A stretch of DNA of 63,923 bases, filler included, from Hausera hauseri (Eukaryota), in assembly GCA_046269625.1 (NCBI GenBank). It is 12 parts of 12 records of this genome, joined end to end, with 100 filler letters (N's around TTAATTAATTAA, not from the genome) between each part and the next. Parts side by side here need not be neighbours in the genome. Positions count along the whole stretch, not along the records: positions 35,389 to 41,961 come from JBJURY010085324.1; 11 more parts are not named here. One strand, 5' to 3'. The translations under genes and the position numbers were made by a program. Numbering within the stretch: the stretch's first letter is position 1; each line of letters starts with the position of its first letter. Under the pieces are notes generated by a model. The model did not search any database and was not told the DNA's origin. It worked only from the letters and a program-made list of their open reading frames with translations. Below, piece after piece: positions 5,101 through 55,700 of the stretch.

Positions 5101-5101
5101 A

Positions 5102-10800: not shown

Positions 10801-10801
10801 T

Positions 10802-11098: not shown

Positions 11099-11182
11099 AA
11101 ACTATTGTTTTATAATTGCATGACAGTTCTACGGAGTCCGGTAATTTAAAGTCAAAGGTAGAAATATACCAACGTCAATTAT

Positions 11183-15675: not shown

Positions 15676-15864
15676 ATAAAGGTTTAAAAAATTATAACCA
15701 GTCTTACTGATATTTGATCACAGTAGTATATAAATATTACTGATTCTAATAATTAAAGATATTTTAATGCCATCAAATAAAGTTTGTGTGTTTCAATGCA
15801 TTATCTGTTCAAACTTTGTTAGTGCATGCATGCAAGGGTAAGAAAAATGTGTATGTATCTAAAG

Positions 15865-15890
15865 CAGTGTTTCTCAACGTGAGCGATATC
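15865..15890 (+). mobile_element. hAT-type terminus (MITE remnant)
   Basis: CAGTGTTTCTCAACG..CGATATC resembles the termini of the hAT element at 27424-29771. No convincing partner end. Confidence 0.45.
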
Positions 15891-18644: not shown

Positions 18645-19194
18645 AGAAAACAAAATGACACATATTTACATTCATGAAATAAGTTTACAGCTGCTGACAT
18701 GTCATCGTGCCCAAAAGAATATTAACGCAAATAATTTATTACAGATGATGTCTTCTGTGAGAAATGTGCCTTAAGAGGTCAGACATAGGGAAAAAGCAGA
18801 AAAATGTTTAAATGTGAAGCAACATAGAACTCCTTGTCAAGGCAAATTCCAAAGATCGTTTCAAACTTTGACTGTATTGAAGAGAAGCAGTTTAAGTCAT
18901 TCACCGGTCTAATTCCAACATGGCCGTTTAACGCAATTACAATCGTCGTAATTTTCACTATAATTAGGGTGTCAGATAGGGCAATTTGGGATCATGTTAA
19001 CAGTGGCAACATTTAGAGGATTGAAAATGGGTGTTAACTTTTTAATTGTGCCAGACAAGGTAAATTTTGAATTGCATCTATTTTCAGTTAATGGGGAATT
19101 TTGTCTGGTCTGTAATTTATTTATAAATATAATCATAGTAAAGAGACAACAAAAACAAAGACAAAGGTATGAAAATTATATCATTGTTGAATAT

Positions 19195-20262
19195 TAAACA
19201 CATTTGCTAAATCGACTGTTTGTTGTCGTCTGTGACGTCGTCGTTCACACCGTGGACAAGTCATTGCTAGAATAGCAGCAAGAACTGTACTAGTACCACC
19301 AGTTGTTGTCATTTTTTGACAACACCTAAATATGTTATTTCAAAATGTACAGTGAGACTGTGCCGATCATAGTTAGCTGCATGTAAGGATGCACATCTAT
19401 AGTACATGGAAATAAGTACGTAAGGAGACACTTGTAAGATTTTGCATTTCTTATCTTTAGAACAATTTGTAATCTGTAGTACTGTAATTATGTCACACTG
19501 TAAATACTCTTCTTTGATTAGTTTGTATTGATGTGGATTGATTGGATTGAAAATTACTATTTCTGCATTTCGAACTCACCTCCTTGAAAGTGCGATTGAC
19601 GAAATACTCAAACTTCGGCCAAATACAATAGGAAAGTCTGTAATGAACAAATTGAACGATGAATTGGTTCATTTCTGATGTGTTAGGATTTGTTATTGAA
19701 CATTCGATTAGAATTTGACTTTATTCATTTTGATTTGAAGTTACAGTTCAGACATTACAGACTATGACAATGTGAATATTGATATTATGATTAATAAACG
19801 TATGTACATAAAGGTCTGACTAACTCCACACTCATCCAACGCACCAATTCGATGATTCATCATGAATCCACCGCCGTAACTTCTACGGTTACGCCATTCC
19901 CATGCTTCATCATCAACGGCATTGCGACTGCCTTGTCGAATAAAATTAACGAGACTCTCTTCTCGTCTTTGTTTACTGTCCTTACTGCAGCCGATACTGC
20001 CCATAATTCAATTATAATCGTTGCCATAACGTAATTTCCATATGGACAAATGATGAGGTAAAATACTGTCATCAACTGTATATGTTGTGGTCCAATTGAC
20101 TCATAAATATTATCCGTCAATTCTTCAATTAGTCCGCTGATTGTTGGACACGACTGTGATGATCCCATACCTCCATGTGACCACAATCCTACATCGAAAT
20201 TCCCCGTTGACTCATTCACTTCTTCTGCTGATGAAACGCACGACATAATTGGTGACGATGTC
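19195..20262 (-). pseudogene. Possible claudin/PMP22-like membrane protein exons
   Basis: GLW...C motif and hydrophobic stretches in ORF 19860-20246, a later segment GGTSTVLAAILAMTC, and AG acceptor-like sites. Weak. Confidence 0.25.
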
Positions 20263-22389: not shown

Positions 22390-24520
22390 TTGGACGAAGT
22401 TGAAGGAAGAATCACCCAAATAGAGCAAAAGGTGAATGATAATAGTATGGGTTTAAATGAATTGGACGAGAAAACTGATCAACTTGCACAAGAAGTTGGC
22501 AACTATTCTAGACAACAAACTATTCGACAGCAAACTATTGATAACATAGCCAAATTATATAGAAATAGAGAACAGATAGACAATAATGAAAGACAAGTAA
22601 GGCAAAGGTTAAACGATATGCAAAATCAAGTAACAGTTATAGTAAACGAACAGGAACAAATTCAAGAAGGAAATAATTGTACTAGAAATTAAAGAGACGT
22701 TGATGCGAGATATAGATCGATTGAATGAACGTCTCGAGCAAGTAAGGACAGAGAAAGTAATAACCCGACGACAGGAAGAAGTACACACACCTGAATTCTC
22801 AGTAGAGGTAGGTTCAATGTCTTGCGAAACCTCTGACATCGATAGCGGCAACATGGAGCCACAGGGGGATAATCAAGAGCCATTGGCTCACCAAAACAGA
22901 TATAACTGTGACCCTAAAAATAATAATGTCACATATGATTACAATGAAGCACGAAGAGAAGAGAAATATCAGACACTTCTCCGTCTTCACACGTATGAAG
23001 GACGAGTATCGGACTTGGAAGACTTCTTGGATGAATATGATTCTCTGGCTACAGACATGCATTGGAGTGACGCGAAGAAAATATCACTTCTACCAGTACA
23101 TGTGAATAATGATTTAAGAATGGCAATAACGCGTCTACCCCTACGAGTAAACGAAACTTGGTTGCAACATAGAGAAAGGATTTTACAAAACCAGCAGGTC
23201 AATATCCAAGAGAACCGATATTTGAAATTCCAAAATTGTAAGCAGAAACCTAATGAAGAAGTGTTGACTTATATAAATAGATTTAAAACAGCAATGACTA
23301 GATATTTTGGTCATAAAGCAAATGCTTTTAGTGCAATGATCATGAAGCAATTTGTACTTGGACTTTTACCACCTTTAAAAGAAGGAGTTAAGTTTCATAC
23401 TGCCACAAATATTAAAGAATTGATAAATTACACTCGAAAAATGGCAACACGGATAGATGAGACACCGTTATGGGCTAACCAAACGCAAATAGCAGCAGTT
23501 ACTACGACACCATTACTAGTTAGACCAGACGTATCAAACCGTAGTAATTCACCCTGGAGAAACTCTTCAAGAAGCCAAAGTCCTAATAGTCAAAATACTA
23601 ATACCCCCCAGCGAAGTAATACCCCGGAGAGAGGAAATTTTAGCCAGTCATCCAGAAACTATAATCAAAGAAACACACAACATCAGCAAAATAGGGGAAA
23701 CTATGATGATCGACAGCGAAACGATAATAGATACGATAGAAAACGAGGCTTTTCGTGAGACAGAAACGATAACAGAAGTCGATTTCCTAGTAGAGAAAGA
23801 TATAGCAACGATCGAAACTTTGGGCGTTACGAGGATAGAAACCTTTATTATAAACGAGATGATAGTCGAACACAATATCTACGGGATGATAATCGAGCAC
23901 GATATCCACGAGACGATAGTCGAACAGGATACTCAAATAATCGATGGGAAGAGGTAAGATCTAACTATCCTAATGATAGGCGAAGTGAGAGCCGCGAAAG
24001 GTTTAGAAGAGAGGATAGCCGTGAAAGATATAATAATTTTAATAGAAACGATAATAGAGAAAGAGATAATCGACGGGGTGATAGTATAGAAAGATATAGT
24101 CCTAGAAACGATAATCAAACTAGTTATAATGACTCAAGATTAGGCAACCACGACAGAAGACGCGACTACACTCCACTTCGACGAGAAACGGATAGGTATA
24201 ATAGAAATCCTAGCCCATACCCTTCAAGAGACAGAAACCGAACTCCTTCCCCAGGACCAAATGGTAATAATAATAAATATACTCGATCGTCAGACTACAA
24301 TTTTAGACGAAATGAAACATCATCAAATAGGAGCGTTTCTCCGTATAGGTATGATAGGAATTCGACGTCACAATATTCCAATAATTTCAATGAGCGAAAA
24401 TCGGATTCGACAATACCATCTTATAGTAGTCCTACGAAAGAAAAAGGAAATTTGTCAGATAATAGAAAAAATAATAACGACGAAAGAAATGCCTCGCCTC
24501 GTCGTTCAGTAACTTTTAAT
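22390..24520 (+). pseudogene. Retrotransposon Gag: coiled coil, capsid-like core, long Arg/Asp/Asn/Ser-rich tail
   Basis: YEGR..DLEDFLDEYD.LA....WSD..KI..L, Q..NE.V..Y..RF and QFV.GL.P are Gypsy Gag core motifs. The low-complexity tail is broken by stops and frameshifts. Confidence 0.8.
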
Positions 24521-26573
24521 GAACAAAGTAAATCAGCTTTTACGGGTTTGTTAATGTCAAAACCCGTAGCAGAATCTTATCAACTAACACCTGAACTGCC
24601 AACCAATAGTACTATCCTGGAAAAACCCTTCATAACTAAAAAGCAATTGGATCAGGAAGAACAAAAAGTACCAGATATCCAAAGAAATACACTTCCATAC
24701 ATGTTATGGCGAGAAACTAAAGAAATTAGAGATTTACTTTCAAGCTTTGTAGCAATAGATAAAATTAACAAACAAGAACAAGAATTAAAAATTAACCGAA
24801 TAAGAATAGAGAATATTGAAGGAGACCTGATAATTGAATTAGAAGATATATATAAAGAAAAAGAAAAATGCTATGAAAACCTTAGACAAATACTCTGTGG
24901 AAAACTTATAGTTGGAATAGAATTGCCATGGTTGTTTAAAGAAATACAATTGAAGGAAACCGATATTTTTGGTACGTTTAGTGTAGATCAGAATTTTAAT
25001 TTACCAAATGATCAATGGAAAAGAGAAGATACATTGTTACAACAATTGAATAATCTACGACAAGAGTATCAGATTAAACTTAACCGTCAAGGATCTCCAT
25101 ATTTCATTTTTCCAAGTAGACCTTTATATAAGAACGATGGATATCCCCAACGTGAAATGACATGTAATACTACCTTAATTCCAGAGGCAGTATTAGAGCG
25201 CATGGACCTAAGTATTGTTCAGAAATAGGATGAACTGTTTGAAGACAAGAAAATTGACAGAATAGAGTTCGCGGACATCGCTGAACAAGGATTGATTTGT
25301 ATGGGAGGCACTGATAAACTCTACCTTAAGAGGACTGATATTCGAATAAAAAGAAAGGATCACCGTGTGCTATAATTATCAATCAAGGAGAAGCCAGATT
25401 GCAAATTAATAATAGAACAGTAATAGTCTCCAAGGAAACTAAGATACTCCCTAATTGTCCTTATGAAGGAGATTATCAGATTCAACCTTTGGATAATTGC
25501 CCGGTATATTTGATACAATTGCTTAAGAATACACCCGCGTTAGCTGTGGATGAACCTGTGACACAAGATAGAGAAATAATTCTTACTGGTAGATGTATAA
25601 CCAAAGGAGACCAAACAGGACTTACTCAGGTCACTGCCAAAAATCTGGAAGGAAAGACAATCCTTAATATTCATGTATATCTAAATATACCGGATAATAC
25701 TAAGTGTACCTAATATAGCAGACAGTTCAATCCACAACGACAGGAACCGGTAAGCGAATTCATGAATAAATATTTATCACGAAAAGTGATCATTGAACGT
25801 CAGTTACCAGAACTGTTAAATACATTGAATATAAATCCAAAAATCTAACTGCCTTATACGATTTGGAACAAACAAACAGGAACTACAAATGTTTGGACCT
25901 ATATAACGGCCATAATTCGGAAATAGTGGCACAAAGATGTTTAGATGAATACCAAAAAACGATGCTAGTGGAATATAATGTACCATGGGTAATAGAAAGT
26001 CGAAAGACGTTACGAATAGCTTTTCCAGCAATAGGAGAATTAGGGAAAACTGAGGAAGCCAGGGCAATCCCGATAATTGAACCAATAACTCAAAGATACC
26101 CATATATGGATGCTGATGAATATTCACAGAAACTTGTTAGAAATAGACCAACCGGAGAATGGATAGACCCGTATGATGATAGATTAGTTGCACCCTTTAC
26201 CCAACCAACGGCTCCACTACAACGATCAACGCTATTTGAAAATATACGAGATACAATGCAACCGAGTACATCCCAGAAGGAACCCCAAATAATAAACGAA
26301 GATGAAATGTTTAAAATTTTAGACTATGATCTTATATCTACCTCAGACACTTTACAACATTCGGAAACTACATTGCTACCAATCGGAAACCAAGAGTTTA
26401 TTCCAGAAATCGATATCCCACCAGGATCTATAGTATACGGCGAACCTCTGGAATTAACAAGCGGAACAGTTAAAGCCAAATTACAAATGTTCAATTCAGC
26501 ACCTAATGAGGTATGGGAAGCTTTACGACAATATGAAACACTACCATTAATCAATCGAATAGATTGCGCGCCA
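24452..26573 (+). pseudogene. Unidentified coding extension continuing from Gag
   Basis: Same-strand ORFs 24452-25228, 25399-25713 and 25863 to the contig end. No protease or RT motif found. Confidence 0.55.
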
Positions 26574-30757: not shown

Positions 30758-33480
30758 GACTGTCGGAAAAGCTGATCACGTACGATAAACTACAAGGACG
30801 GCCAGGTATAAAAATAAAGATACAAGGTAGATGGAAAGACTGCTTATTGGACACAGGAGCACGGGTGCACGTGATGAGTAAGAAGATTTTTGAAAGACTG
30901 ACAGATATCCGGCTGGATAAATCCGATATCATATTCCATTGTGCAAATGGTAGCCCCTAGATTGCATAGGTGAACCATCCGTAAATGTGGAACTCAAGGG
31001 TTTACAGAAAAGTGTAACTTTCATAATAATGACAGACATATCACCAGAAATAATTAAAGGAATGGAACTGCAAAAGACTTTTGGAATCGAATTAGGTTGG
31101 AGACAAAAGATGGAGATGAACAAAGATATGATGTATGCAAGTTAAATGCAAAATTTGGTCGAAAAGTGACAAATGAAGAACGATTCGAAAGAGTGAAGGA
31201 GATTCTGCGCATAAACAAAAACCCAGTGGTATTGGATATAGTACGGATAAACCAAGAAATCTTCATGGCTGACAAGTGGGACGTCGGCTGTACAACATTG
31301 ATCAAGCGTAGAATAGACACCAAAGGCTCACCATTTATCATCAAACCACATAGATAACCAGTGAATCTAGAAAGTAAAATCGATGAGACCATCCAAAACC
31401 TATGGTAAAACAGTATCATCAAGAAATGTAATTTACATTGGAATACTCCGATTATCTGCATCTGAAAGAAAGAGAAAAACGATGTCAGAATTTGTCTAGA
31501 TTTTAGAGAGTTGAACATCATTACAGAAAGACAAGCGTATCCCGTGCCGAATATGATGGAAATAATGAATAAACTATATGAGGCAAGATATATTACATCA
31601 ATCGATTTGGAAAACGCATACTACCAGGTCAAATTAGAGGAAGAATCCAAGTTGAAAACATCTTTTTTGAATAAACAGGGGCAATTTAATTTCAACAGAA
31701 TGCCTTTTGGAATAGCAGCAGCGCTGGGTACATTTCAAGAACTAATGATCAAATTAGTGATATATGTTGAACAAACTATAGTATACCTAGACGATAGATT
31801 GGTCTTTTCGAAGTCTTTAGAAGAACATTATATAATACTAGAAAAAGTACTAGATCAGATCAAAAAGACGGGACTGAGAATAAATGCAGAAAAATGCCAC
31901 ATCTTAAAAAAGGAGGTAAACGTCTTGGGACACTTTGTGAATAACAAAGGAATAAAAACGGATGCCTGAAAGCTGGACGCCATCAGATCCTTCGAGAAAC
32001 CGAAATGTGTAAAAAGTCTGAGAAGCATTTTGGGATTTGCAATTATTACAGCAGATTTATTCAAGGATACCCCACAAAGGCTAAGTCATTAGAACATATG
32101 TGCGGACTGAACAACAAAAAACTGGTATGGACCGAGACTTTTAACAAAGCATTTGAAGCAGTGAAGATGGCTTTGGCGTCGCCACTAATATTAGGGTTCC
32201 CAGACTTTAAAAAGGAATTTATTCTGGATAGTGATGCTAGCTTCGATACAATTGGAGCAGTATTATCACAGAGAGACAGCGCCGGGCATGAAAGCGAGAT
32301 TGCATACGGGTCACACGGAATAAATAATCAGGAAAAGGGCTATTGCATTACACGGAAGGAGTTTCTGGATATGTACTACTTCTGTCAACATTTTATTCAT
32401 TATTTCTATGGAAGAAGATATACAATGAGAACGGACCACAAGGCCAATACCTTCATGTTGAAAACAAAAATGCCGGTAACAGCACAACTCAAAACCTGGA
32501 TAAACTGTCTATCAAGTTTAGACATGACTGGAATACAGGAAAGGCACAGATCATGCAAACGCCAACATATTATTCCGGACCAATTGCGATACATGCAGCC
32601 AATGCTTATTATCTCACGAACATGCCAAAACATAAGGTCAAGACTCGAAGGATAAACGCAGTTGAAGCACCAGAAGCATATCCATATCAAAGAGGCAGCA
32701 AAAAAATTGAAGAAATAAAAGAATAAACCTCAAAAAAGAACATTGGAAATTCTTAGTGGAAAATGGCATAGTGAAGACAAAAACAGGCAAGATATGGATA
32801 CAAACGGATAAGAGGAAAGAAATGATAAAGCAATGTCACGCCATACTATTCTATGCCGGAATAGAAAAAGTAACAAAATACATAAGCAATAACTACGATA
32901 TGACAGACATGAAAGACACCGTAAAGGAAGTGATTGGATCTTGTGAGGCATGTCAACGAAACAAGACAGTGACAACGGGTGTGAAGGAAGAGACCCTGAG
33001 ACTCTCTGCAAACGAACCATTCGAGAAGATCTACATTGACACTTGTGGACCGTTAAAAGAAACCTGGAGAAAGAAAATATATTGGCCATCATAGACCAGT
33101 TTAGCAGACACATATAGCATTATCTGCTATTGCAAAACACGACGAAGTACAACAAAAGACATGGTGCTAAAGATATGGATTCTCAAATTCGGCGCACCGA
33201 AAGAGATACACATTGATTGCGGTAAAGCATTTGAATCTAAGGTCCTTAGAGACATGACAGCGTCAATGGGCATCAAGATGTGCTGTTCAAGCCTATATGA
33301 TCACAAGACCAATGGCATAGTGGAAAGGCAATTCCGGACAATTAAAGATTATATAGGTGCGACTCTTCATGATCGACGACGAACCGATTGGGAAGAGATA
33401 CTACCGGAGATAGAATTCACATTGAATGCAACAGTTCAGAAAACAACAGGATAGAGCCCAGCAGAAATAATACGATGGAA
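30758..33480 (+). mobile_element. Decayed Ty3/Gypsy pol (PR-RT-RNase H-IN)
   Basis: LLDTGA; CLDFRELN, IDLENAYYQ, RMPFG, YLDD; FILDSDAS..GAVLSQ, TRKE, RTDHKA; H..(Y)..CEACQ, IDTCGP, DCGKAF, NGIVER. The domain order is Gypsy. Confidence 0.93.
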
Positions 33481-34330: not shown

Positions 34331-34401
34331 TTTAGTTTTCGTAAATAAGGTTCAAAAACTATAAATACGGGAAGGAAATAACATTAATCATCAATATCAT
34401 C

Positions 34402-34885
34402 ATGGATACAGTTAATCAACTGAAGCAATTGCAAAATTTTGATGCGTTATCAATTTTAGACTTGATACGATGGTGTAAAGTACTTGGTAGTAAGCTGGTT
34501 GCGACAGCAGCATGTGATTTTGGATTTAAAGAAGTTTTAGCGTCAATAGCATTGATAACAGGAACAACAGATTGTATCTGTAAAGAAAATCTAATTATTG
34601 TGTTAAATCAAATGAACATTCACCGATTATACGATACAAATTACTTTAATGATGTTGAAAAAGTTCGCGGTGAATTAAAGAACCTAAAAGCGAAAATAAT
34701 GGACAAAGTACGAGACTGTAAGTTTATGTGTGTACTATGTAAACAAAGAAAGTGGATACGGTATTCTTAATGTGCGGTCATGTCGTTGTTTGTCAAATGT
34801 GTTCTAACACCACCACAAGGTAACCCACCAATGTCCAGAATGTAAATGTACTGTAATGGAAATTGTACACATTTATTATGAATAA
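34402..34885 (+). pseudogene. Small protein with a C-terminal IAP-type RING finger (frameshifted)
   Basis: CVLCKQRK..TVFLMCGHVVVCQMCS...CPECKC.VMEIVHIYYE*. Confidence 0.75.
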
Positions 34886-35076
34886 ATAAATGCATTGACT
34901 TTTCCGTAATGCGTGGAGTTTATAGGGGCAATTTGTTACAATGACTCTCAATGTTGACACATTTGTAATATAAACAAAACAGCGGGTTTGAGAAGTATAT
35001 ATAGCGATATAATTTCATTTTAGTTTGTCTCTATTTCTCTCTTTCTCTTTCTTTCTCTCTCTCTATATCTACAACA

Positions 35077-35288
35077 ATGAATTCCGATGAAGCACCAATA
35101 GGTTTGAGTTCTGCTGCTGCAAGTCAACCACGATATAATCATTATTCGGTCAGACCGTCTCGGTTGTACAATGGCTACAAATTAAACTACCTACGAACGT
35201 CCATTCAATTATCATTGGCGCAACCGGTCAAACTCAAACAGGTGAAATACGGTTTGTTGGCAAAGAAAATCAGCGACAGTGATTTGGA
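35077..35288 (+). CDS. Unknown Maverick ORF, cut by the contig edge; homologue of 56810-57290
   Basis: SRLYNGYKLNYL..IQLSLAQP.KLKQVK.GLLAK.ISDSDL is shared between the two copies. Confidence 0.6.
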
Positions 35289-35388
35289 NNNNNNNNNNNN
35301 NNNNNNNNNNNNNNNNNNNNNNNNNNNNNNNNTTAATTAATTAANNNNNNNNNNNNNNNNNNNNNNNNNNNNNNNNNNNNNNNNNNNN

Positions 35389-35918
35389 AGCGACAATAAC
35401 GACCCTGATTTCGTAGATGCGAGAACAGTATTCAGTGCATCGCTATAAGAAACCGAACTTATCGTAGAACTTCATATCGACGTAACACTATTAGATAACA
35501 GAGAATTGAGCTTAATACTATCACCCGATGACGGCACATACATCATCAGATCCACCCGGTTTGGCCAAATAACGTCCCTTGGTGTTTCTTTTATTTTCAA
35601 AAAATCCACCGGTGGTCTACGGGACAACATATTTATGGTGAAATTTGCTTGTCCGTGGTCATAACTCGCAACGGTGACATTAAATGAATGCCAGTTTAAT
35701 GATGAAAATGACACACTTTGGATCGGTGCGTAACTGACACGTCGTTTGAAAATCGAACACAAGTAATGGTTGACACAATCGTATCGGAAATGATATATAC
35801 AAGTTAAATCAAATATTGCAACGTATCCTTTCGAATACCAAACTAAAAACTTTTCGGGAAATTCGCTTTTCCAATCAACTTCTATATTCTAAGTACCTTG
35901 AAACATGTTAACTTCAAT
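35389..35918 (-). pseudogene. Unidentified third gene fragment following the UBR5 piece in the same frame
   Basis: UBR5 similarity stops after NILH. The frame continues through a stop into ORF 35472-35762 (FNVTVASYDHG, faintly cadherin-like). Confidence 0.35.
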
Positions 35919-37924
35919 ATGAAGGATATTTCTTTGTCCATTTAATTTCTCTCCAATTGATTTTGAAACTAGACTATCAAATTCCGATAATCCCAAAAAG
36001 TTTTCTAAAATATTGGTCACCTTTTTCTCATCAGCTCGAACGATATGATGCATCAACGTTTGAGATTCCAAAACCAAGACGCCAATGAAAAGACGATTAT
36101 ATTTATTTTTCGTGCTTCGTGTATTTTCTACAATTTGGTTATTTAACACGACATTGCCCATGCTTCTCGAATTGTTGAAATATAAAGCTCCAAAATTAAT
36201 ACATCTAACTGGGGGTAAATCCAACCACTGAGGACTAGGAATGGTCTCAGATTTAGACGAAACGGAGTTATTTGTGTGGTTATCGTTAAATAAAAAAGGA
36301 TAAAAGGTGCCATTTCCATCTCGGATAAATATTGGACAATAACGTTCCACATTAAAAATAGTTCCATTTTTGAGCTCACAAAATTCACTTTCTAATGGTC
36401 CAATAATCATTGAATTATTGGATCGACCCAAAAAGCCGTTGGATGTCGTATTAAGGCGATGGGATGAATTAACTTTTTTCGAAAAACTTAACAATTTATA
36501 TTCGATTACTTTAGGTGCATTTGGTTTGCGAACAAGCAAAGGTATTATGTCATTCTCAAGAGCCATGCCCACTATGCTTGGATTAGAATTTGACGGTGGC
36601 TTACATTCTAAATATGCTTCAGTTGGTATACACTTAGGATACTTTTGAACTATTTCTGGAACACGAAATATTAAAGGTTGTTTAACAATTACTAGTTCTT
36701 CTTTTCGTAACAAACGGCAATCGTTTAGCCAAAATATTGGATCTGGCGTAGCACTGTTAGATTCAGTACACGTCGCTGAATTAATTCCAAATACGGCACC
36801 AATTGGTGAAAAGGGACAATTAACTGCGATATAAGCTCTCTTGGAATCTTTTAAAAATTTGACTGCCGCTATAGAACCATCAACTTTCAACACGACAACG
36901 ACAGGTTGCGTTCTGCCATCTTCGAGAGATATAACATCTTTTAAACACCAGTCTTCCTCGTCTTCTTGTTGCTGAGCATTACGTGATGAATTGTTAGCCT
37001 TAGTTGTATTTTCATCTGGTGTTGAAGATCGTTTGTGTCCAGCTAGTGGTTCATTATCTTGATTGCTTGAAGTGAATGATTCAGAATAACGAGTTTTGTT
37101 TGATCTGTTTCCATTACTGCCGGAAATTGGTGGTCAGCTTTCTGTATTGACTTCAGTAATCAGATCGCCCGCCGCACTTCTGCTGTTTACAGATTGTTTT
37201 TTACGTTTGAATGTTCCAGGACTAATTTTAACTGGCCCGCTCTGATCACTACAGGTTGAACTGGCCGGTAACGGTGGAGGAGGCATTTCAGCCCACGATG
37301 TCGTTGATCGCTGAATAGAACCAGAACATTGTACACTGATGCTATGATTACTACTCTGATTGCCCTCAGACACTGAAACTTGTTTATTGGTACCATCAGT
37401 TCCAAGAAGTTCATAAAGGAACGACGTGTTCATCTGTGGGTGAGTATAAGCATAAGTAATCGGATCAAACGAAGCCGGATTGGTGGAATTTACAGAGTTC
37501 GGAATTGAGTTTCGTCTTTCATTCACTAACCTCTGAACTGGTTTAACACTAAACTGACATATATCTTCAATTTTCCACGCATCTTCCAATGGAGTTCCAA
37601 CTCGAGGAATTCCATCTGCAACAGTAAACCCTATTGCACCAGCATGAAAAATTGGAGCGTTTCTCATGCAAACAAATGACCCCAACGTTATATTAGATAC
37701 ATCGTTTTTGCTTAGTTTATTTTCTTGATTACAGCTATATTTATTTTTATCTTTGGGAATTAGATCTATACTTTTTTCATAGCCGTTTTCCGATATTTAA
37801 ATGGAATTACTCCCCACCAATATATATTTCCTGATAAACATTTTATAGGAGATACAAATGATGATATGTATACATCTGCAATTGTTTCATCCTTTAATTC
37901 GTTATATTGAATTGCAGTGTGTTC
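35919..37924 (-). pseudogene. UBR5: Internal fragment of HECT E3 ligase UBR5/hyd (N-terminal half), intronless, with lesions
   Basis: EHTA..Y.EL, YWWGVIPF..RK, PIFHAGA.GF....G.P.VG, MPPPP.PAS.CSD, WCLKDV...ED......VLKVDG...AVKF, DCRLLR.EEL, RDGNGT.YP, WLDLPP, QTLM.HI.R.D and GQRNILH occur in UBR5 order. Confidence 0.85.
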
Positions 37925-39002
37925 AACAGGAAGCTCAATTCCTAGTAATCCTCGGCTTATTAATATACCGTCCGCGTCTTTCGATATCTTGTCGAACACA
38001 TCTGCTGATATATAATTTTCAACTTTCAGGATGATTGGTATTGGTTTACCGATTTCTTTTCTTATTTTTTTAATCGTATATGCATCATTTACAAAACTTA
38101 CCATAGCTATATCAACTTCATTGTTAGCTACAAATTGAAGCGCCTTCACATAGCTTTCATAATAGTTATGAAGAACATTTGGACTCCAGAGAAAATTAAT
38201 TGACTTATTTAAGCTTAAGATGCTTCCTGTTTAACGAGACATCGGCACCATTTACCAAAATTTTCTCTAATAATTTGAGTGACAGTTCCGTCTTCAATAT
38301 AAAGTCGACTTCGCGGTATAAAATAACGCATGATTTGGGGAAATTGGGAAACATTCAATGAAGTGACATTGTATTTTGATGTATCTACAACATCAAAACG
38401 AGATACTAACCAAACAGATTCTCCTTCAAAAATTTCGTCTTTTTTGATAATAACGATATTTGACTAAGTTTTGCGACTGGAGCTGCGATGTCAACGGCTA
38501 TCGAAATTTGCCTAAACGAGTCTTCTAAATATGTTTTCTCCGCTCTTCGTACCAAATGAATTACTTTTTTTGGTTTCCTCGTAACCCAATGACGTTATAT
38601 TCAGTCTGGCAACATTTATTCCTGCTTTCATCATTTTAAAATTAATTCTTCAGTATTGGAAGCTTTCCCAAGAGCACAAATCATTTTAGTTGTTCTGTTT
38701 TCTTTAGCATTTTGATAGACATCTAATTGACACATATGGTCCAATTTTCTTGGTGGGTATTCAAATCGGTTATATTCAAACGTCTTACTTCTTAATTGAA
38801 TTATAGTATCTGTAATTTTATTTCCTTGACACATACACTTAAATCCTTTTGCAGGAAGCGATTTTGGAGGCATGTTTAAGTCAAAAAGTGGCTGTCGTAA
38901 ATAGTGTTGTTTCAACTGCTCAGCTTTTTCAGCAATCGATTTGTAATTTTCTTCAGCTCGATACAATGCGCAGTTTAATTCGTCCATTTTTTCTTCTGAC
39001 AC
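37925..39002 (-). pseudogene. Divergent pyruvate kinase N-terminal fragment, intronless
   Basis: DHMCQLD...TKMICALG.AS...AGINVARLN; VDIAMVSFV, IILKVEN, ADGILISRG.LGIELP. Contains stops. Confidence 0.85.
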
Positions 39003-39569
39003 CAGTGTAGTTTAGATAACATGAGTATTAATTCCATTAAAGAAAAAATCCAAAAAAAAAACGATGATGTATTTGAACTTTCAAAAAGCTTTTGCAAAAT
39101 CAATTTTCTATACATTTTCAACATTACTCAGTATACAAATACTACATTTACAACTATACATTAAAAAACCTTTTACAATTCAATTAAACGTCCTTTGATC
39201 AGAAAAGTATCCAAGGAATGTTGCGGAAGTGTGAAATGACGTAACTGGTTTGAGGTGACCTGCGAATTGAGGTAAACTTCGAATTGAACAGTCGAATGTT
39301 GTATGTGTCGAAACGAATATGGAACATCTGCATATGAACTTGAGGTCTTTGTTCTTTGTTGAGAGTTCCCTGCTTTTCTGCATTGCTGTATAAAGACCAT
39401 CTTTTCCTTTAAGTGAAACTTCAAAATGATAGCTTTTACAAATCGTTTGAGCTAAGTGCCGCTGTCACACCTTTGTCGGAAATTACAGTTTTTTTGCGTC
39501 GCATAATTACATGGTGGGGAAAAGTCCTCTCACCAATTCAAACTGTGCAGCCACATCCTAGGCACTACG

Positions 39570-41961
39570 TCACTCCCCCTGGCAAGACGAAGACTATGAA
39601 GAGAAGAAAATGAATGGAAATTATAGTAGGGAAAAGAAAAACTTAAACCTATTCGGTTTTGGTACATGTTAGACGTTGGACTCTATCTATGAACTTCTCC
39701 CTGCTATAAGTGCTAAACGTCACATGACGTGATCTGTTAGATGTTGCTAGTGCTTGTGGGGCTGTTCGAGGGAAAGAAACTGTGGATTTTGTGGTGTTTC
39801 TGGAGGATGTTTCATGAAGAGGTGAAAATGGCGAAGAAACTGAAGAGTGAAGTGGGTCAAGCGAAAGAGGCGAGACTGGAGGTGGAGGCAAATCGTGCGT
39901 TGACGGTGAAGTGAGTAGTGCGCGTGCAGGTGATGACAGCGAAGTGAGTGGTGAATGAACAGTGAACGATGACGGAAGTAAAAAGGATTTATTGTGACTC
40001 TACTGTTGCGACGGCTCAAAATTATCGAGGAAATTAGATAATGGCTCGCGAGAAGAGAAATTAGAGTCAGGATTTAAAACAAGGCTGTTATCCTGGTCAT
40101 CATCAACGAAGAATTCTGGCTTAAGTTTAGAGATATGTACATTTTGAGGTTTGTCCTTGCGTAAAATAGTAGCGGTGTGCGAACAAAGGTTTAGTAATTT
40201 GTAAGGGCCAACGTATTAAGGCCGAAAACCTGACGGTGAGGGGTCCTTCAGCCATACAAACTTGGCTGAGTATATGTCCTCTGGAATATAAGATTTGTCT
40301 TTATTTATAAGACGGCAAAATGCATTAGAGTTTACCTCTATAAAGTGGAACTGTGCTGCACGAATGACTTCATCTGATGGACTTTCAACCAGATTGGAGA
40401 GCTCAAATAGTGCACGAATTGGTGTCCCAAAGAGAGCTTCAGCCGGTGCACAACCGGTGGTAGTGGATGGCGTGTTACGACAACCAAGTAGAACAAAAGG
40501 AAGAATCGAAGTCCAATTACGATTGTTGTTTTCCAGGATTTTTAGAGAAATATTCACGGTACGGTGAAATCTCTCAAGAAGGCCATTTGCTTGGGGATGG
40601 TACGGCGTCGTCTGAAAGTGGGCTATCCCCAAGTGCTTAACTAGAGATTTAAAAAGATCAGCTTCAAATTGCGGACCCTGGTCCGTTATGATGTGACGTG
40701 AACCAAAACGGCTGACCCATATCTTGATTAATGCATCTGCTACTGAGTCAATGTTGGTTGATCGAAGCGAAACGGCTTCAGGCCAGCGGGAAGCGCGATC
40801 CATCATGGATAAGATGTATTGATAGCCGTTGTCGGATGGCAAAAAACCGACAAGATCCAAATGCACCGTGTCAAAACGGGACGTACAAGGGAAGTGGTAA
40901 AATGGTGGTTTTAGGTGTTTGTGACCTTGTATTGCTGGCATGCTGCACATCCCTTGACCCAAATCTGTACATCTGTACGCATAGTTGGCCATACAACGTG
41001 GCGTTGCAGTAGACGAAATGTGACTTTTAAACCCGAATGATGAAGAGAGTGAAAGTTATTAAAAGCTGTCTTTTGTAGCGATGGTGCAAGAATGATCTTC
41101 TTGTTGGTCGAGTTGGAAGTGTCATAAGCGATGCCATCAATGATTTCAACAGATTTAAAAGCTTGGAGAATGTCAGATGATGGCTGTTTGCTTCTCAGGA
41201 CCTCAAGGGAGAAAATTGGCTGAACTGTAATTGAGTTAACCGACCTCGAAAGAAAATCAGCTACTAAATTTTCGGTGCCTGAAATATATTTCATGGAAAA
41301 GTTAAAAGTCGACAGGTATGATAACTGTCGTTCTCGTCTGGGTGATGGCTGTTTCAAAGTCATTATATAAAGTAAAGGCTTGTGGTTGGTTTGGATGATA
41401 AATTGACGTGAAAGAAGCAAGTGCTTAAAATGCTTTACCGCAAAAACTACAGCCAAGAGTTCACGGTCGAATGTGGAGTATTGGCTTTTTGGTTGCGTGA
41501 GCTTTCGGGAATAAAATTCTAATGGTTCATCGACGCCATTGTATATTTGGTGTAATATCGCACCAGTTTCTGTGGTAGAGGCATCGGTAGTTAGTATTAG
41601 TTCGGCGTTTGGTTTTGGAAAGGCCAAGATTTCCACAGTTTTCAGACCTTGACGAAGGCGATCAAATTGGTTTACTAGATCGGGAGTCCAGTGGATTAAT
41701 TGTCTTTTCTTCCCAGATGAGAGGTGTGCGAACGGTGCCGTTAGTTCGGAGCAGTGTGGGACGGATTTGTGTACGAAATGCAATGTCCCTAGAAAACTCC
41801 TTCATCGGTAGTTGTAGTTGAGAACGTTACATTTTTTAATTGTTCTAAGCGATCAAGCTGGGGTGAATGCCCTTCAGGAGTAAATATGTGGCCTAGGAAG
41901 TTTACGCGTTTCTGGAAGAAATTGCATTTGTCGAAATTAATTTGCAGGTTACTTTGATGCA
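39570..41961 (-). mobile_element. Ty3/Gypsy 3' part: end of RT, RNase H, integrase, Ser/Pro-rich tail, PPT
   Basis: FLGH; LTTDAS..GAILHQ, YSTFDRELLAV, HKPL; HSLHH..CAACQ; HLDLVG, TDQGPQF, NGLLERFHR; GPY. PPT AGGGGGAG at 39580-39573, with a probable LTR start at 39569. Confidence 0.92.
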
Positions 41962-42881: not shown

Positions 42882-43039
42882 CATCATCACTGTCAGATTC
42901 TATTTCCAGTATTGTGAAGTGGTAGAGGTGCTCTGTAACTAAATTCGTGAAGAGGGAAATCGGGCCCGACTATGGGGCCGACGCGGCGGCGACGGAGGCC
43001 CGGCCATGTCCAACCAAATTGGCCAGAGGGCGCCGGCCG

Positions 43040-44890
43040 CTGTGAGCACCACACATTCATCTTCATCTGTCCAATCTGGGGTTTTGTGCTGTTATTGCGA
43101 TAACATGGTGCAATTTTCGATTAAACTATTGTTTCCAAATGATTCAGGAAATCATGCACACAGTTCCAGCCGTGAAACATGTAATACTGCGGTTGACCTG
43201 CAGCTTTTATCGGGACAACCAACATTCCCACGGCAAGTGGAACATGTTTTTGATCGTATACGTTGTGCCGTGGTAGGATTCTCAATAGCAGCATATATCA
43301 CATATGTTGTACTGTCCGTTTTATACCTATCACTAAATTGCAGTTCCTTTTTGAATGGCATGACGTACATTGTTGTTCCTGATGCATTCTGTTTGCACAG
43401 CGTCACATGTTTTTCCCACGTGGTTTCTGATCTGAATCCATGCAGACATGTAGGACACCATTTACAACGTATTTATTTTTGGACAAATTGATGGTAATCC
43501 ATGTTCAACAGTCGGTCCAAATTTGTCACGGCCAAGTAATGAAAATTTTCTGCCTGCTTCGTCAATAACAAATTTAATGTACATCCATTCGGTTTCCGAC
43601 TTCGATAGATTATATCTATATGTGGATTCTTGTAAAATTTTCTCGTCTGCCGGTATTTCAACTATTGTCTTGTACCGGAACACGTTGATTGACAGTGTCG
43701 GATTACGCAGTTCAAATGTTGAAATGGATTTTAGTTTCATCGGCATCCAGTTTTCGTCGAATTGCGATTCGAAAAATACTGCCGATACTAACTTGGACGA
43801 TATTCACTGTCTGTTCACTTCGTCATATTTTAATACCGCCAGAATACTGTAAATAAAACAGTAATCATCGTCCGTGTTTTTTACATTCACTACCTAATAA
43901 GAGTGCTTTAGAGCTTCAGGTGTCGGTATGAATAAACGTCCGGACAGGTAAATCATGTCACTCGACTTTGTTATAATAAAACCGAGTGACGATTTTTATT
44001 ATTCGTCAACTGCATTATTATTCCACAACTGCCTTTTTCGGTGTAATTGACGATGTTTTCGTCCAGCTTTTCGCCCATATCGGCAATGAAATCTTTGGAA
44101 TATGGAACTGTTCGATGTGACAGGAACCACTGTTTCCTGTTACCCTGCAGATTCTCAAATTCTGCAAGTGCATAATATTGCCCTTTGCAGTTGTGGTGTT
44201 TGAATTTCTCCACTTCGGTTTCTAACCGGTTGCGCACATAACCGGGTACATGCCTGAGTTGAGTTGCTGATTTCGCCGACATGTTAACTTTTATATCCAG
44301 GGACGATCTGTTTAGGTCGTACTTGACAGTAATGGGCGGTTCCTGTTGATGCTGCTGCTCCCGCCGCTGATGTTCTGTATTGCTGCTTTGCAGGTATTCG
44401 TCAAGACTTGTTGATGTTTGACATTTCCTGCTTGTTGAGGGAATACTGCTTTTTGCTGCCTCCATTAATATTTCCTTTTTGGACCCATGAAGCTGGTTCA
44501 AGTGTTCCTTGTGCTCATTATAAAATTGTTCATAGTTGATTTCATCAACTACAGAACAACCGGGACAGACGTAGGCCCGTTTACTGTGCACCGTTATGTG
44601 CCATAGTACTACTCCATTTTACTATGGCAACCTGCAACGTTGTGCACTTTACTAGTACAATACCTTGGGTACAAGGAGCAATGCACATGCATCATCTTAG
44701 ACCGATTAACGGTCCATGATTATACTTGTGCACCTCATAAAAATCGGCGTATAGACAAGGGGCCGAAATACTACCGCACGTTGGTCCCAAATGAGTCCGT
44801 GCCAACGAAGTAATATTTAGCCATTTGCTGATAGCACTGATCCTGCTCCACATGTATACGCGAGACGCAATACATGGGATAATTAGTGCA
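43040..44890 (-). pseudogene. N-terminal half of Maverick PolB, close relative of 52750-54430
   Basis: Near-identical peptides (ITVKYDLNRS..DIKVNM, HNCK.QYYALAEFENL, NVKNTDDDYCFI, RNPTLSINVFRY). Truncated at a GC-rich junction. Confidence 0.88.
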
Positions 44891-48972: not shown

Positions 48973-49203
48973 GGGACTTCCGGTTATCCAGGACGACCAG
49001 GAAAAAAAGGAATTAAGGGAGGTAAAGGTGAAATTGGAAAGGATGGTCTGGAAGGGGAAAGGGACATAATAATAAACAAGTTAGTCATCAAGTGAGTCAA
49101 AAAGGATATATCGAACCTAGAGGAGACATTGAAGAAGAAGGATTAATTGGACAAAAAGGACATGTTGGGAATTTTGCAAATAGAAGTTCAAATGGTGAAA
49201 AGG
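48973..49203 (+). other. Collagen-like Gly-X-Y repeats
   Basis: GTS GYP GRP GKK GIK GGK GEI GKD GLE GER (10 triplets), then a degenerate second run after a frameshift. Confidence 0.8.
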
Positions 49204-49235
49204 ACGATAATATGACTAGAGTTGGAAAAATAAGA

Positions 49236-49451
49236 AAACAGATAATCATATGTTGCGGTGGACGAAATTACGTGGTAGACGCAACTGAGGTTCAGTCGTA
49301 TCGTGGCCTAACCGGAATAATAAGGAAAAATCTGAGAATAAACGGGGAATTCAGAACATTATATGCTGAAAAGCCGCTATGGATCGACGAAGCAGTGAAA
49401 AGCATAAGACATGGTGCAACACTTCATTTAACGTTCCAGTTAAAAGGAGGA
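49236..49451 (+). other. Ubiquitin-like domain in frame with Gag
   Basis: About 72 aa ending FRTLYAEKPL...IRHGATLHLTFQLKGG; compare ubiquitin QRLIFAGKQL...IQKESTLHLVLRLRGG. Confidence 0.75.
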
Positions 49452-50630
49452 AGCGAAATAACAGCGGACAAACTCGAAGAGCGTATTGCCGAACGACGAG
49501 GACCCATAAATGAATTGGCTTTGATTCGAAGTAGATTGATGGATATAAATTTGAACAAACATGATTATAACGTATTCCATCAAAGTGATAAGAAGGTTTT
49601 TTCGAGTGTCCAAGAAGAACTGTGTATATTGACCACCGCAGCCAGGAAACGAAAAAGAAAAGATAATGTAACATTGCTAGAGAATGAAATAGAAAAACGA
49701 GACGAGCAGAACAAAAAAATCAACACAATTATCCATGAAAGAAGCTTAATAGAAAACAAATCGACAATTAACACAGTAAGAGGTGCGGATAGTGGTATAA
49801 AGGAAAAGGTTATATTGCCGAAATTGCAGAAGTTAGAACTCCCAAAGTTTGGCGGTATAGTCACAGAGTATGATAAATGGAAGAGAACGTTTGACACCTG
49901 CGTTCATAAGACGTCAATGTCTGACATCTACAAACAATTGCAATTAAATCAATGCCTGTACGGAGAACCGAAGAGATTAATTGAGAACTTTGACCTGTCT
50001 GAAGAAGGCTATAAGGCTGCAATGGGAAAACTTGACTCTTATTATGGGGGAGAACAACGGTGTTTTGCCGCCTTCATGACCGAAGTGATGCGTTTTAAAC
50101 CAATCAGGGAAGAAGACATCATAGGCCCAGATAGATTTGTTGCTTTGTTGGATGGCATAACAGTAAGATTGTAAAATTTGGGAAGGAAAGAAGAATTGGG
50201 TGGAGGATTATTATATAAAAGTCTTGTAGAAGAACTCCCAGAATCTATAGTATTATTATGGGAGAGACATGTAGCTGAAAAGAAGCTAAATCGAACGGTT
50301 GAAGAATTGAAAACTTGGGTGGAGTCGGAAGCGAGCATACGGAGGAGCACCATTAAAAGAATTAGAGGTATCAACGTCTTTAATACATTTGAGGCTATAT
50401 CGCCGTCAAGATTTGGAAATGAAAACAAATTTGATCAAACAACAACTAACAATCGTTCCAGAGTTGAAAATTATTAGAATAATGCAACGTTCGGAATCAG
50501 GAGACATGACAAATAAACACGAAAGAGATTTTACATAGATAGACAACCTAATCAAAATGAGACTCGAGTTCAAGATAAGATGAAGACAGGTAACAGCGTT
50601 AAAACATCAGATAAGAACGAGGAAATGCTT

Positions 50631-50777
50631 TGTTGGGAATTTGAAAAGGAGGGGACTTGTAAATTTGGGAATAATTGTAGATTCTTACACAAGAAAGATA
50701 TGAAAATCGAAACACGGATATGCAAATATTATCTGAAGGGAAATTGTAAGTAGGGGGAAAATTGTCATTTTGTTTAT
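50631..50777 (+). other. Tandem CCCH zinc fingers at the Gag C-terminus
   Basis: Hand translation: CWEFEKEGTCKFGNNCRFLH (C-x8-C-x5-C-x3-H) and CKYYLKGNCK*GENCHFVY (damaged C-x7-C-x5-C-x3-H). Confidence 0.8.
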
Positions 50778-52381
50778 GAATCACCGCAAATAAGGATAAT
50801 TCTAAAAAACAAGAAAAAGCGTTCTATACACGACACACAGAAGAAAGAGTAAACAAAGAGGAAGACGTGGGAGACGATATTGAAGCACGGGTCAACACGT
50901 ATGTAATTCAACGATCAGAAGGGAAAATGACAAAAAATAAAATAGCATTGCATACGGTGGACGTATGTTTGGAGAATGGAGAGCGAAAAATAAAAGTGTG
51001 TATGTTGTTAGATGATGCGAGTACAGAATGCTTCGTAAAACGTTCTGTCGCAAAGCAATTAAAATTAACTGGTAGTCAGGAAAATGTGTCCGTCATGGTG
51101 GTAGGTGGAGAAACAACAAAGTCGAAAATGAAAAGGATAAAAATGAAATTACGAAGTAAGAACGGAAAGGTTGACATCCCATTTAAAGCGTTGGTCCCCC
51201 ATGATCCAATTGGGAAAATGATGGCCGTAAATTGGGAGATCGAGAAAAGAAAATGGCCACATTTGAGAGAAATAAAGTTTGCCGCTTAAAAATTGCAGAA
51301 ATCGGTTGATGGGATAATCGGTGCGAACTATATGCATTTGCATAGGTCTATAAAGGAAATAGCAGGAAAAGCAAACGAACCTGTAGCCGGATTGACTCCA
51401 CTCGGATGACCGTGAGTTGGTGTGATCGGAGATGAAAGAAAAAAGGTAAGGACGAATTTCGTTAGAACATTTTGGACAAGAACCGATAAAGTGCAAGAGG
51501 ATTGGAACAGATTATGGGAAGCAGAACAGGGGTTCCAAGAAAGGACGGAGCTAAATAACTTAGAGATTGAATTGTTGGAAAAAGTAGCTAACGGAATAAA
51601 ATATGAAAAAGATAGATATTGTGTTAAACTACCCTGGAAGGGAGAGAAACATCCAGACGTCAGTAATTTTGAATCTTCATGGATGGCGAAAAGAAGGTTG
51701 GAATTACTAATAAAAAATTAGATAAAGATGTTAAAGTGAAAGCGGAATACGATAAGGTTATTAAAGAATATGAGGAGAAATTGCATATAAGAAAAATACC
51801 GAAAGAAAAAGAAGAGGAAACAAAATGGCTATTACCGCACTTTCCTGTATTCAAGTTTGATCGTGACACCACGAAATGTCGAATAGTGTTTGATGCGACT
51901 GCAAAAATTAAGGAAAAGTGTCTAAATGATTTCTTAGAAATCGGTCCAAAATTACAACTCGACGTAGTTAACATCTTACACAGAATGCGTCGCAATAAGT
52001 ATGTTTTAATTTGCGACATACATGAAATGTTCCTCCAAATTGCAGTGGATTCGACAGATAAAAAATATTTACGTTTCATATGGAAGGAAGATAATAAATA
52101 AGTTATCTACGAATTCAATAGATTGGTGTTCGGACTAAATAGTTCTCCTTTTTTAGCACAGTTAGTATCCAGAGTGAATGCGGAAGGATTTGAAAAGGAA
52201 TATCCAAGAGCAACGGAAACTATAAGACGATCTACGTATATGGATGACTGCATAGATTCAGGTCCAACAGAAGAGGAAATANNNNNNNNNNNNNNNNNNN
52301 NNNNNNNNNNNNNNNNNNNNNNNNNTTAATTAATTAANNNNNNNNNNNNNNNNNNNNNNNNNNNNNNNNNNNNNNNNNNNN

Positions 52382-52749: not shown

Positions 52750-55700
52750 ATGTATTGCGTCGCTCGCACATGTGAGGAGGCAGAACAGTGCCATCAACAG
52801 ATAGTGAAATATTATAGTGTTGGACTGGACACATATCTGTGTCAGACGTGTAATAATATTTCAGCCAAATGTCCGTACACCGATTTTTATGAGATGCACA
52901 AGCATCATCTCGGACCGTTTACACGGTCGAAGAAGAAGATGCTAGTGCATTGCCACATTTATCCACGGTATTGAACAATTTTATAATAAGCACAAGGACC
53001 ACTTAAACCAGTTTCAGAGGCCCAGAAAGGAAATATTAATGGAGGCAACAAAAAGCACTATTCCATCAACAAGAAGGAAACGTCAAGCATCAACAAGTGT
53101 TGACGAATACCTACAAAGCAACAATACAGATCAGCAGCAACAGCAGGAACCGACCATTACTGTCAAGTACGATCTAAACAGATCGTACATGGACATAAAA
53201 GTAAACATGTTGGCGAAATCAGCAACTCAACTGAGGCATGTATCGGCTCATATGCGCAACCAGTTAGAAACCGAAGTGGAGAAATTCAAACACCACAACT
53301 GCAAAGTGCAATATTATGCACTTGCAGAATTTGAGAATCTGCATAGTGACAGGAAACTATGGTACCTGTCACATCGAGCAGTTCCATATTCCAAAGATTT
53401 CATTGCCGACATAGGCGAAAAGCTGGACGAAAGATTCGCCAACTAGACCGAAAAAGGCAGTGGTTGGCGAGTAATGAAAATTGTCACTCTCGGTTTTATT
53501 ATAACAAAGTCGAGTGACATAATTTACCTGTCCGGACATTCATTCATACCGACACCTGAAGATCTAAAGCACTCTTATTTGGTAGTAAATGTAAAAAACA
53601 CGGACGATGATTACTGTTTTATTTGCAGTATTCTGGCGGTATTAAAATATGATGAAGTAGACAGACATAGTGCATATCGTCCAAGTCAGTATCGGCAGTA
53701 TTTCTCCGAATTGCAATTCGACGAAAACTGGATGCCGATGAAACTAAAAACCATTCCAATATTTGAACGGCGTAATCCGACACTGTCAATCAACGTGTTC
53801 CGGTACAATGCAATAGTTGAAATACCGGCGGATGAAAAAATTTACAAGAATCCCTATGTGGATATAATCTATTGAAGTCGAAACCCGAATGGACGCACAG
53901 TAAATTTATTATTGTTGGAGCAGGCAGAAAAATTTCATTACGTGGCCGTGACAAATTTGGAACGACTATTGAACATGGACCACCATCATTTTATCGAAAA
54001 GCGTATACGTTGTAAATGGTGTCCTGTATGTCTGCATGGCTTCAAATCAGAAACCACGTGGGAAAAACATGTGACGCTGTGCAGACAGAATGCAGGAACA
54101 GGAACAACGATATACGTCATGCCAGTCAAAAAGGAGCTGCGATTTAGTGACGGGTCTAAAACGGACAGTCCAGCTTATGTGGTATATGTTGATTTTGAGG
54201 TAATCCTACCACGGCACGACGTATACGATCAAAAACATGTTCCAATCGCCGTCGGAATGTTGATTGTTCCAATAAAAACTGCAGGTCAATTGCAGTATTA
54301 CATGTTTCACGGCTGGGACTGTGTACGTGATTTCCTGCATCATTTGGAAACAACAGTTGAATCGGAAATCGCACCGTGGTATCGCAATAACAGCGCAAAA
54401 CCCCTAATTTGGACAGACGAAGACGAACGCCTGATGTTTGCAGTCACAGAGGAATGTTATCTGTGCCACAAAATATTACCGCTTGATGCACAGGAACAGC
54501 TCGTACCGGATTGTGACCATTTTACCGGTTGATATCTCGGTGCAGCATGCAATTCATGCAATTTGGCGAGGCGTGTGTGGCCATTCCCACAGGTGATCTT
54601 TCATAATTTCCGAGGTTATGATTGTCATCATATACTCAAATGGGCCATTAACGGATTTCCGCACTGGGAACTATCCATAATCCCAACAATAATGGAGAAG
54701 TACCTATCCTTATTGGCACGCATAAACCGGTTTCAGATACGATTTCTTGACTTATTGCAGTTCCTCAATAAATCTTTAGCAAAGCTCGTAAATGCCTTGC
54801 CGGATGTACCGCTAACACTGACGCAGTTCCCCGCACATATTTCATGCAGCAAAGGCATATTCCCGTATGATTTTGCTGTACCGTACGAGCGACTGCAGAC
54901 AACAGAGGAGTTGCCACAACAATGGGCCGGAATTACAGAGGACGAGTAGCAGAAAGCGCAGAAATTTCGGAAAGAGCTGAACTGCATGCAACATGTTGGA
55001 GTACATTCTCCAGTACCTGAAACTGGACGTGTACTTGTTAGCCGACGTATTCCAAGCGTTTCGGGCTAAAGCGTTGGAGGAAGATAGGCTGGAGCCGCTT
55101 AATTTTTACTTTATACCGGGGATGAGTTGGAAATCAGCTCTAATGTCAACAAACATCACGCAGCCAGTGGTAATGATACCACCACCACATCAATGCTGTA
55201 TACTGACATTAATAACCTGTACGGTTTGGCGCTTTCGCAACCTTTTCCGTACGGTTCATTTGAATGGGTTGTCAAAAAAACAGGAATTGGATGCATTAAT
55301 GGACAGTCTACCAGCAGCAACACGACAGAAAGCAGCTCAGTCGGCAACCTAATGGAAGTCGATCTCGTGGTACCAGGTGAGCTGCATGACGCTTTGGACA
55401 AATTACCCGTGGCACCAATCAGCCAATGTCCACCCGGCGGCTCAAAAGTAAGGAAACTGCTCATGACGCATGAACTGAAATCGAATTATGCGGTTAATTG
55501 GCGTCTACTGCAGTTTTAAATGCAGTTCGGTGTACGCATTATACAGCTGCATCGTGCAATTCGCTTCAAACAGGCTCCGATATTCGAGGAATACTTTGAT
55601 GGAAATTCGGAGAAACGAGCCGCAGCTTGTACAAAGTTCGAAAAGGACTATTACAGGCTCAAAAACAATTCACTGTACGGCAAAACAGTGGAGAAACTAA

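Follow-up and report, generated by a model that had tools for sequence, protein, structure and literature searches.

LTR-mediated retrocopies that join at least two genes occur across animals, and their pieces are often in sense orientation and in frame, with the copies multiplied later (Tan et al. 2016, PMC5131818). Maize Bs1, cited in the same survey, is made of pieces of three genes. In tripartite LINE chimeras, three transcript copies are fused by double template jumps (Gogvadze et al. 2007, PMC2104539). Gene pieces, among them retrogenes, can also be taken up and multiplied by Helitrons and Pack-TIRs (PMC4224331, PMC8277862, PMC6431247).

The locus considered here lies in a stretch of 63,923 nucleotides from Hausera hauseri assembly GCA_046269625.1 (the window). 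A pyruvate kinase (PK)-like piece, an internal piece of UBR5, and a third coding piece (fragment 3) follow one another end to end over 1,199 codons, all on the minus strand, meeting at joint 1 and, presumably, at joint 2. Measured against the LTR-mediated retrocopies of PMC5131818, the likeness lies in what appear to be partial mRNA pieces of several genes, in sense orientation and largely in frame; copies that multiplied afterwards and retain one set of switch points are another common trait. Those retrocopies have short shared sequence at the switch points, for which the candidate here is up to 6 bases at joint 1. They lie inside an LTR element, whereas here the 5′ side is bordered by the outer end of a 3′ LTR without a primer-binding site and, unlike in those retrocopies, the PK piece has retained an ATG and leader of its own. 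As in a Bs1-type chimera, the PK and UBR5 pieces lie on one strand, with joint 1 in two versions. Enclosure inside an LTR element is absent on the visible 5′ side, the 3′ side being beyond the contig end, and because enclosure fails on the visible side the chimera is not filed as Bs1-type. Apart from this failed enclosure, the chimera would, by analogy, work like LTR-mediated multi-gene retrocopies.

The likeness to the LINE chimeras of PMC2104539 would be three transcript copies joined directly through double template jumps. Those chimeras combine pieces of non-coding RNA, SINE, and LINE and have target-site duplications, whereas every piece here is host sequence that codes for protein, and the ends are out of view. 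Helitron and Pack-TIR capture likewise yields several gene fragments in multiple copies, with retrogenes possible; unlike such captures, the fragments here are long, purely coding, and on the same strand in the same frame, with no terminal inverted repeats of note in the contig. No UBR5-pyruvate kinase chimeric pseudogene was found in the open-licence literature searched, nor, by title or abstract start, any multi-gene in-frame shuffling in flatworms. The shuffling process is already known, and the chimera is a fresh instance among Bs1 and the Drosophila two-gene retrocopies.

Data and Layout of the Locus

The window consists of 12 contigs of 3,984-7,957 bases each, artificially joined by spacers of the form 44N-TTAATTAATTAA-44N with stops in all six frames. 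Adjacency across a spacer is no sign of linkage, and the contigs look unrelated. The chimera sits in the contig at 35389-41961 (JBJURY010085324.1), and 35389 is the contig end, so fragment 3 and the 3′ end of the chimera are cut off (Table 1).

Read evidence comes from one public run, X1, in the form of Logan contigs; its share of words is 0.51, and the window may come from the very sample sequenced in this run. Logan contigs collapse or drop variants, and their depth is not equal to copy number. The alignment at joint 1 (37720-38010) holds 27 X1 records, 8 of them listed, and 6 of 8 loose ends are shown. Bridging was taken as at least 31 bases on each side of a joint; a parent contig sharing fewer than ~31 bases would go unaligned. 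The comparison across the locus covers 30 bins, with 8 of 6,123 pieces listed and the Gypsy element filling the tables.

Table 1. Features of the chimeric locus and its 5′ neighbor
Feature	Position	Strand	Evidence or remark
Decayed Gypsy-type LTR retrotransposon, 3′ part	39573..41961	-	Pfam RT_RNaseH, Integrase_H2C2, rve; neighbor outside the chimera
Gypsy 3′ LTR, complete, 336 bp	39237..39572	-	TG...CA ends, 7-bp terminal inverted repeat
AT-rich leader, LTR end to ATG	38988..39236	-	Two more ATGs (39037, 39022) in another frame
PK-like gene 5′ half, divergent, four frameshifts	37928..38987	-	Pfam PK, PKM alignment, codon-usage score
Joint 1, codons V-E	37922..37927	-	Native UBR5 copies match the window to 37927
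Internal UBR5 fragment	35859..37927	-	~Human residues 470-940; one frameshift (~37771), two stops (37134, 35889)
Fragment 3, coding piece without credible homologue	35389..35858	-	UBR5 frame, one stop (35472), ends at contig end
Site of 41-base GT...AG insert	35672..35672	-	Insert in one X1 contig (depth 5.49), absent from the window

The Pyruvate Kinase-like 5′ Half

The original prediction placed an in-frame switch from PK to UBR5 near 37924, and homology on both sides bears it out. Residues 4-107 of ORF 37766-38230 (minus strand) match Pfam PK (E 5.8e-15), and the ORF matches PKM as far as ..LGIELPVE (E 3e-12). From 37927/37924 onward the same frame matches UBR5 in tblastn with 16 UBR5 homologues. 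The PK-like reading starts at ATG 38987, after a 250-bp AT-rich leader. PK N-terminal motifs follow after ~85 unassigned codons, a weak match taken alone (E 0.06); barrel and lid pieces come next, and then the clear match to ..SRGLLGIELP. The codon-usage score selects the same frames as homology. For the N-terminal 118-120 residues no homologue was found, with Atlas scores below 0.8 and Pfam HJURP_C below the cut-off.

The aspartate of the ARGDLG motif of pyruvate kinase binds the catalytic metal. In the PKM alignment this aspartate is replaced by leucine in the PK-like protein, which suggests that the PK-like parent may be a pseudo-enzyme. An X1 PK contig places 334 bases on the 333-base span 38349-38681, with 3 gaps (one listed at 38565) and a net gain of one base; by arithmetic, this is the pattern expected if the window's three frameshifts are absent there. 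This intact sequence may come from the parent or from a second chimeric copy, because Logan contigs collapse variants. X1 depth is 33-46 over 38689-39128 (leader and N-terminal codons), with 46 in the bin 38909-39128, versus 15-20 over the PK core, and this interval could represent a fourth fragment or a leader that has been copied more widely.

Joint 1

Joint 1 is genomic and occurs in two versions, with its UBR5-side position at 37927/37928, as evidenced by two X1 records that cross it and three contigs that leave the window there. Record 5 bridges the joint without a single difference: its span, 37870-37960 at depth 5.4, includes 33 PK bases and 58 UBR5 bases and thereby passes the 31-base bar. 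Record 4 crosses at 37858-37953 with 7 differences and has 26 bases on the PK side, below the 31-base bar; it overlaps record 7 by 30 bases, and record 7 in turn overlaps a 269-base PK contig by 30. The three diverging contigs depart at 37926/37927 into sequence that by hand translation resembles native UBR5, with D-x8-R-V-E-H versus D-x8-K-L-E-H in homologues; one is open (depth 10.2) and two carry a stop. The six bases 37922-37927 are UBR5-derived. Since the V-E codons fit both families (PAE in PKM versus PVE here), up to 6 bases of microhomology at joint 1 may possibly be common with the PK parent.

Simple mis-assembly at joint 1 is ruled out by the X1 contigs. More broadly, the chimera could be an assembly or whole-genome-amplification artefact in a short leftover contig, an idea encouraged by a window made up of 12 spacer-separated contigs of 4-8 kb, by several frameshifts in A-runs, by X1 perhaps being the source sample, and by a joint 2 without a bridge among the listed rows. 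An amplification chimera, however, would have arisen once and would match its parents exactly, whereas joint 1 is present in separately assembled contigs whose two versions differ at 7 of 96 bases, and we consider an artefact highly improbable.

None of the loose ends listed (6 of 8) is a free PK continuation past joint 1, so the PK part may be a resident gene rather than a copied mRNA. X1 depth of PK is ~15, and the joint-1 records have depths of 5.4 and 6.8, plus one unlisted record of about 4; these add up to roughly the PK depth, which would allow for there being no free PK parent. A two-step origin, which we regard as unlikely, takes up this point: a retrocopy or cDNA of UBR5 and fragment 3 would have recombined with, or inserted into, a resident PK-like gene that supplied promoter and ATG, and the resulting fusion may for a while have functioned as a gene. 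Such an origin would account for the PK part's own ATG with its 250-bp leader, for a PK depth roughly covered by the joint-1 records, for the lack of a free PK continuation among the loose ends listed, and for the X1 contig at 38349-38681, whose pattern fits the absence of all three window frameshifts. The loose ends and the records listed, however, are 6 of 8 and 8 of 27, the contigs drop variants, their depth does not measure copy number, and a parent contig with fewer than about 31 bases in common would escape alignment.

The UBR5 Fragment

Human UBR5 is matched at residues 522-589 and 640-928. The best 5 of 16 UBR5 relatives are from flatworms (Paragonimus, Cichlidogyrus, Heterobilharzia, Dibothriocephalus, and Taenia), with 29-36% identity among the proteins of 726-2070 residues searched, which makes a flatworm the likely source. 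UBR5 similarity had been expected to stop after NILH, at 35919, but it extends ~20 codons farther, through the stop at 35889-91, to ~35859 (DWKSEF versus DWTSKL in Cichlidogyrus). An intron was considered as the cause of the frame break at 37771; no in-frame acceptor is apparent by eye, and the break is taken as a frameshift.

Several versions of the UBR5 piece are present in X1. At position 37905, five contigs have another letter, which together with the window type gives about six versions. Two X1 contigs depart from UBR5 at 37810/37813, just past the YWW codons, into a different open frame and without a GT donor; they are likely another chimera on the same UBR5 piece. One further contig (depth 8.7) skips 12 UBR5 bases at 35997-36010.

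Fragment 3 and Joint 2

Past UBR5, unrelated coding sequence had been predicted, and it is indeed found. The UBR5 frame continues through a further 153 codons, different in sequence and with a single stop, compared with 5-13 stops in the other five frames, and it has the best codon score; stop counts and codon score likewise reject a plus-strand reading. Fragment 3 is not diverged UBR5: the best blastp score is 18.9 bits versus a shuffle mean of 20.3, the profile score is -4.0 versus 50.8 for a control, and the aromatic share is 0.13 versus 0.02-0.08 in 11 homologues. Its own family did not emerge from a PDB sequence search (1 match, E 1.4), Pfam (0 families), a word-based search among longer proteins (95 candidates, none with E ≤10), or the Atlas (no usable match). 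HMMER against representatives gave 2 matches, both to long repetitive proteins over 30-45 residues and judged spurious. A single-sequence fold prediction is all-beta with a pLDDT of 45, and the best hit of a fold search has Z 4.6; the model gives an impression of a beta-propeller.

Joint 2 would lie at about 35850-35858, where the sequence continues in frame with UBR5; no bridging record occurs among the 8 of 6,123 X1 pieces listed. The insert at 35672 within fragment 3 begins with GT and ends with AG when read along the coding strand, and its length of 41 bases is not divisible by three. It is likely an intron that was kept in the parent or in another copy and lost from the window.

Decay of the Window Copy

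The fusion was proposed to be in frame, which holds at both joints and fails along the locus. The window copy is a pseudogene: it has five frameshifts (at about 38633, 38565, 38420, 38225, and 37771) and three stops (37134, 35889, and 35472). Comparison with X1 found 580 differences; of the 40 listed, 33 fall in the coding span, with 4 synonymous and 29 not. The neutral expectation is 21-28% synonymous, and the chance of 4 or fewer in 33 is 0.03-0.15. There is thus no sign of purifying selection on the window copy among the 33 listed coding differences. Neither the reading frame nor the 4 of 33 synonymous differences is that of a functional gene.

Two of the listed X1 differences, at 35890 and 35473, turn window stops into serine. 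At 13 non-synonymous sites in UBR5, homologues match X1 at 7 and the window at 2, with 4 uninformative. Because homologues side with X1 at 7 of 13 sites, most changes arose in the window copy, but the X1 contigs do not represent the parent in pure form.

The Neighboring Gypsy Element

The original prediction put a Gypsy 3′ end ~570 bp upstream on the same strand, as a putative promoter. The strand is right, and 570 bp is the distance to the LTR start (39572), whereas its end (39237) is 250 bp upstream of ATG 38987. A polypurine tract (39580-39573) directly precedes the LTR, and RNase H and integrase are matched by Pfam, with a summed X1 depth of about 2,000-20,000. No TGG follows directly after the LTR as part of a primer-binding site, the first being 23 bases on, and no 7-mer match suggests self-priming. 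For lack of a primer-binding site, a role of this LTR as the 5′ LTR of a carrier is rejected. The chimera is outside the adjacent Gypsy element, because a complete LTR ends there with no primer-binding site behind it. Most likely Gypsy inserted separately from the chimera, and there may be a larger, different carrier into which it inserted.

Other Features of the Window

Elsewhere, an uninterrupted TTL-family ORF of 604 codons (11162-12976, plus strand; Pfam TTL, E 2.5e-65) takes up much of its 4.4-kb contig and is an intronless gene or a retrocopy. Another uninterrupted ORF (14335-15525, plus strand; 396 codons) begins at a contig end and has an N-terminal RING finger. Short compact ORFs with TATA-like leaders and, by eye, a broken RING-like end occupy 34345-35290 on the plus strand; Pfam gives no match, and the region makes a virus-like or Polinton-like impression.

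Mobile elements are also present. A second Gypsy-like pol, frameshifted, lies at 31466-33454 (plus strand), with reverse transcriptase, RNase H, and integrase motifs by eye. A 431-codon ORF on the minus strand (60327-61622) encodes a pogo/Tigger-type transposase (HTH_Tnp_Tc5, DDE_1). Retroelement gag-like ORFs at 49032-51289 and 22646-25228, both on the plus strand, match DUF1759 (E 1.5e-10) and, weakly, Retrotrans_gag (E 5e-4). Fragments at 8574-9065, 42943-44618, and 52946-54532 presumably resemble Polinton-type DNA polymerase B and its neighbors. Pfam searches of 8574-9062, 43971-44618, and 53876-54529 returned no matching Polinton-type family. The segments 43971-44618 and 52946-53446 are mutually similar.

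Origin of the Chimera

No introns were evident to the original prediction, and the alignments agree, with no gap attributable to an intron. Introns of the UBR5 or PK parents are absent from X1 contigs of 466, 366, 334, and 269 bases, gap-free in this respect, and no joints of this kind occur in 37720-38010. The absence of introns as such is a weak argument here, because the window contains the uninterrupted 604-codon TTL-family ORF and X1 is gap-free over 466 + 366 UBR5 bases. The sole direct sign of an RNA step is the 41-base GT-AG insert in one X1 contig of depth 5.5. Both joints are inside coding sequence, with the frame kept and on one strand; by simple arithmetic on strand and frame, this would occur by chance about 1 time in 36.

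Template switching by reverse transcriptase between mRNAs, followed by duplication and decay, is the best reading, and we give it an even chance. It is favored by the lost insert together with the same-strand, coding-to-coding, in-frame joints. In this scheme, the reverse transcriptase of a retrotransposon would switch template among the mRNAs of three host genes, passing from the fragment-3 gene to UBR5 and then to the PK-like gene to give one sense-strand, in-frame cDNA. The chimeric cDNA would then integrate into the genome, where it was likely duplicated at least once before it decayed. Of the template switching proposed originally, the genomic chimera stands firm at joint 1, and the RNA step is suggested by the single insert. 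LTR-internal sequence, a primer-binding site, poly(A), and a target-site duplication are not visible in the contig, whose 3′ side is cut at 35389.

Alternatively, the pieces may have been gathered at the DNA level, by a Helitron, a Pack-TIR, or template switching at a replication fork that collected intron-poor gene pieces or older retrocopies and was followed by multiplication. The presence of the UBR5 piece in about six versions at 37905, with different neighbors, is consistent with such capture, and the parents may be intron-poor here. There is also precedent in bat Helitrons that carry and amplify retrogenes (PMC4224331) and in the Pack-TIRs of animals (PMC8277862). However, the latter paper gives a median of 224 bp for animal Pack-TIR captures, and the pieces of the chimera are 0.5-2 kb, all coding, sense, and in frame. 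Furthermore, the contig, one end of which is cut off, has no terminal inverted repeat of note, and one intron has apparently been lost. Capture of this type is a contender but a rather unlikely one.

An exon-shuffling mill may be active here, in which the UBR5 segment serves as a hub that is joined to several partners, and a fusion of all three pieces with its frame intact, 1,199 codons or longer, may survive elsewhere as a young gene that replaces the free PK-like parent. This picture is unlikely. Compatible with it are X1 sense codons in place of two of the three window stops, gaps as expected if three PK frameshifts are absent, the second version of joint 1, the lack of a listed free PK continuation, and the contigs departing at 37810/37813.

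Significance

The stitching of mRNAs by retrotransposon enzymes is a known route to new genes. The chimera adds a case of in-frame, multi-gene shuffling of protein-coding pieces, read-supported at joint 1, in an apparent flatworm. A frame-intact copy that is expressed would raise its importance, as would a family of chimeras with the UBR5 piece as its hub. Were such a UBR5-hub family real, its copies would record the order of the capture events.
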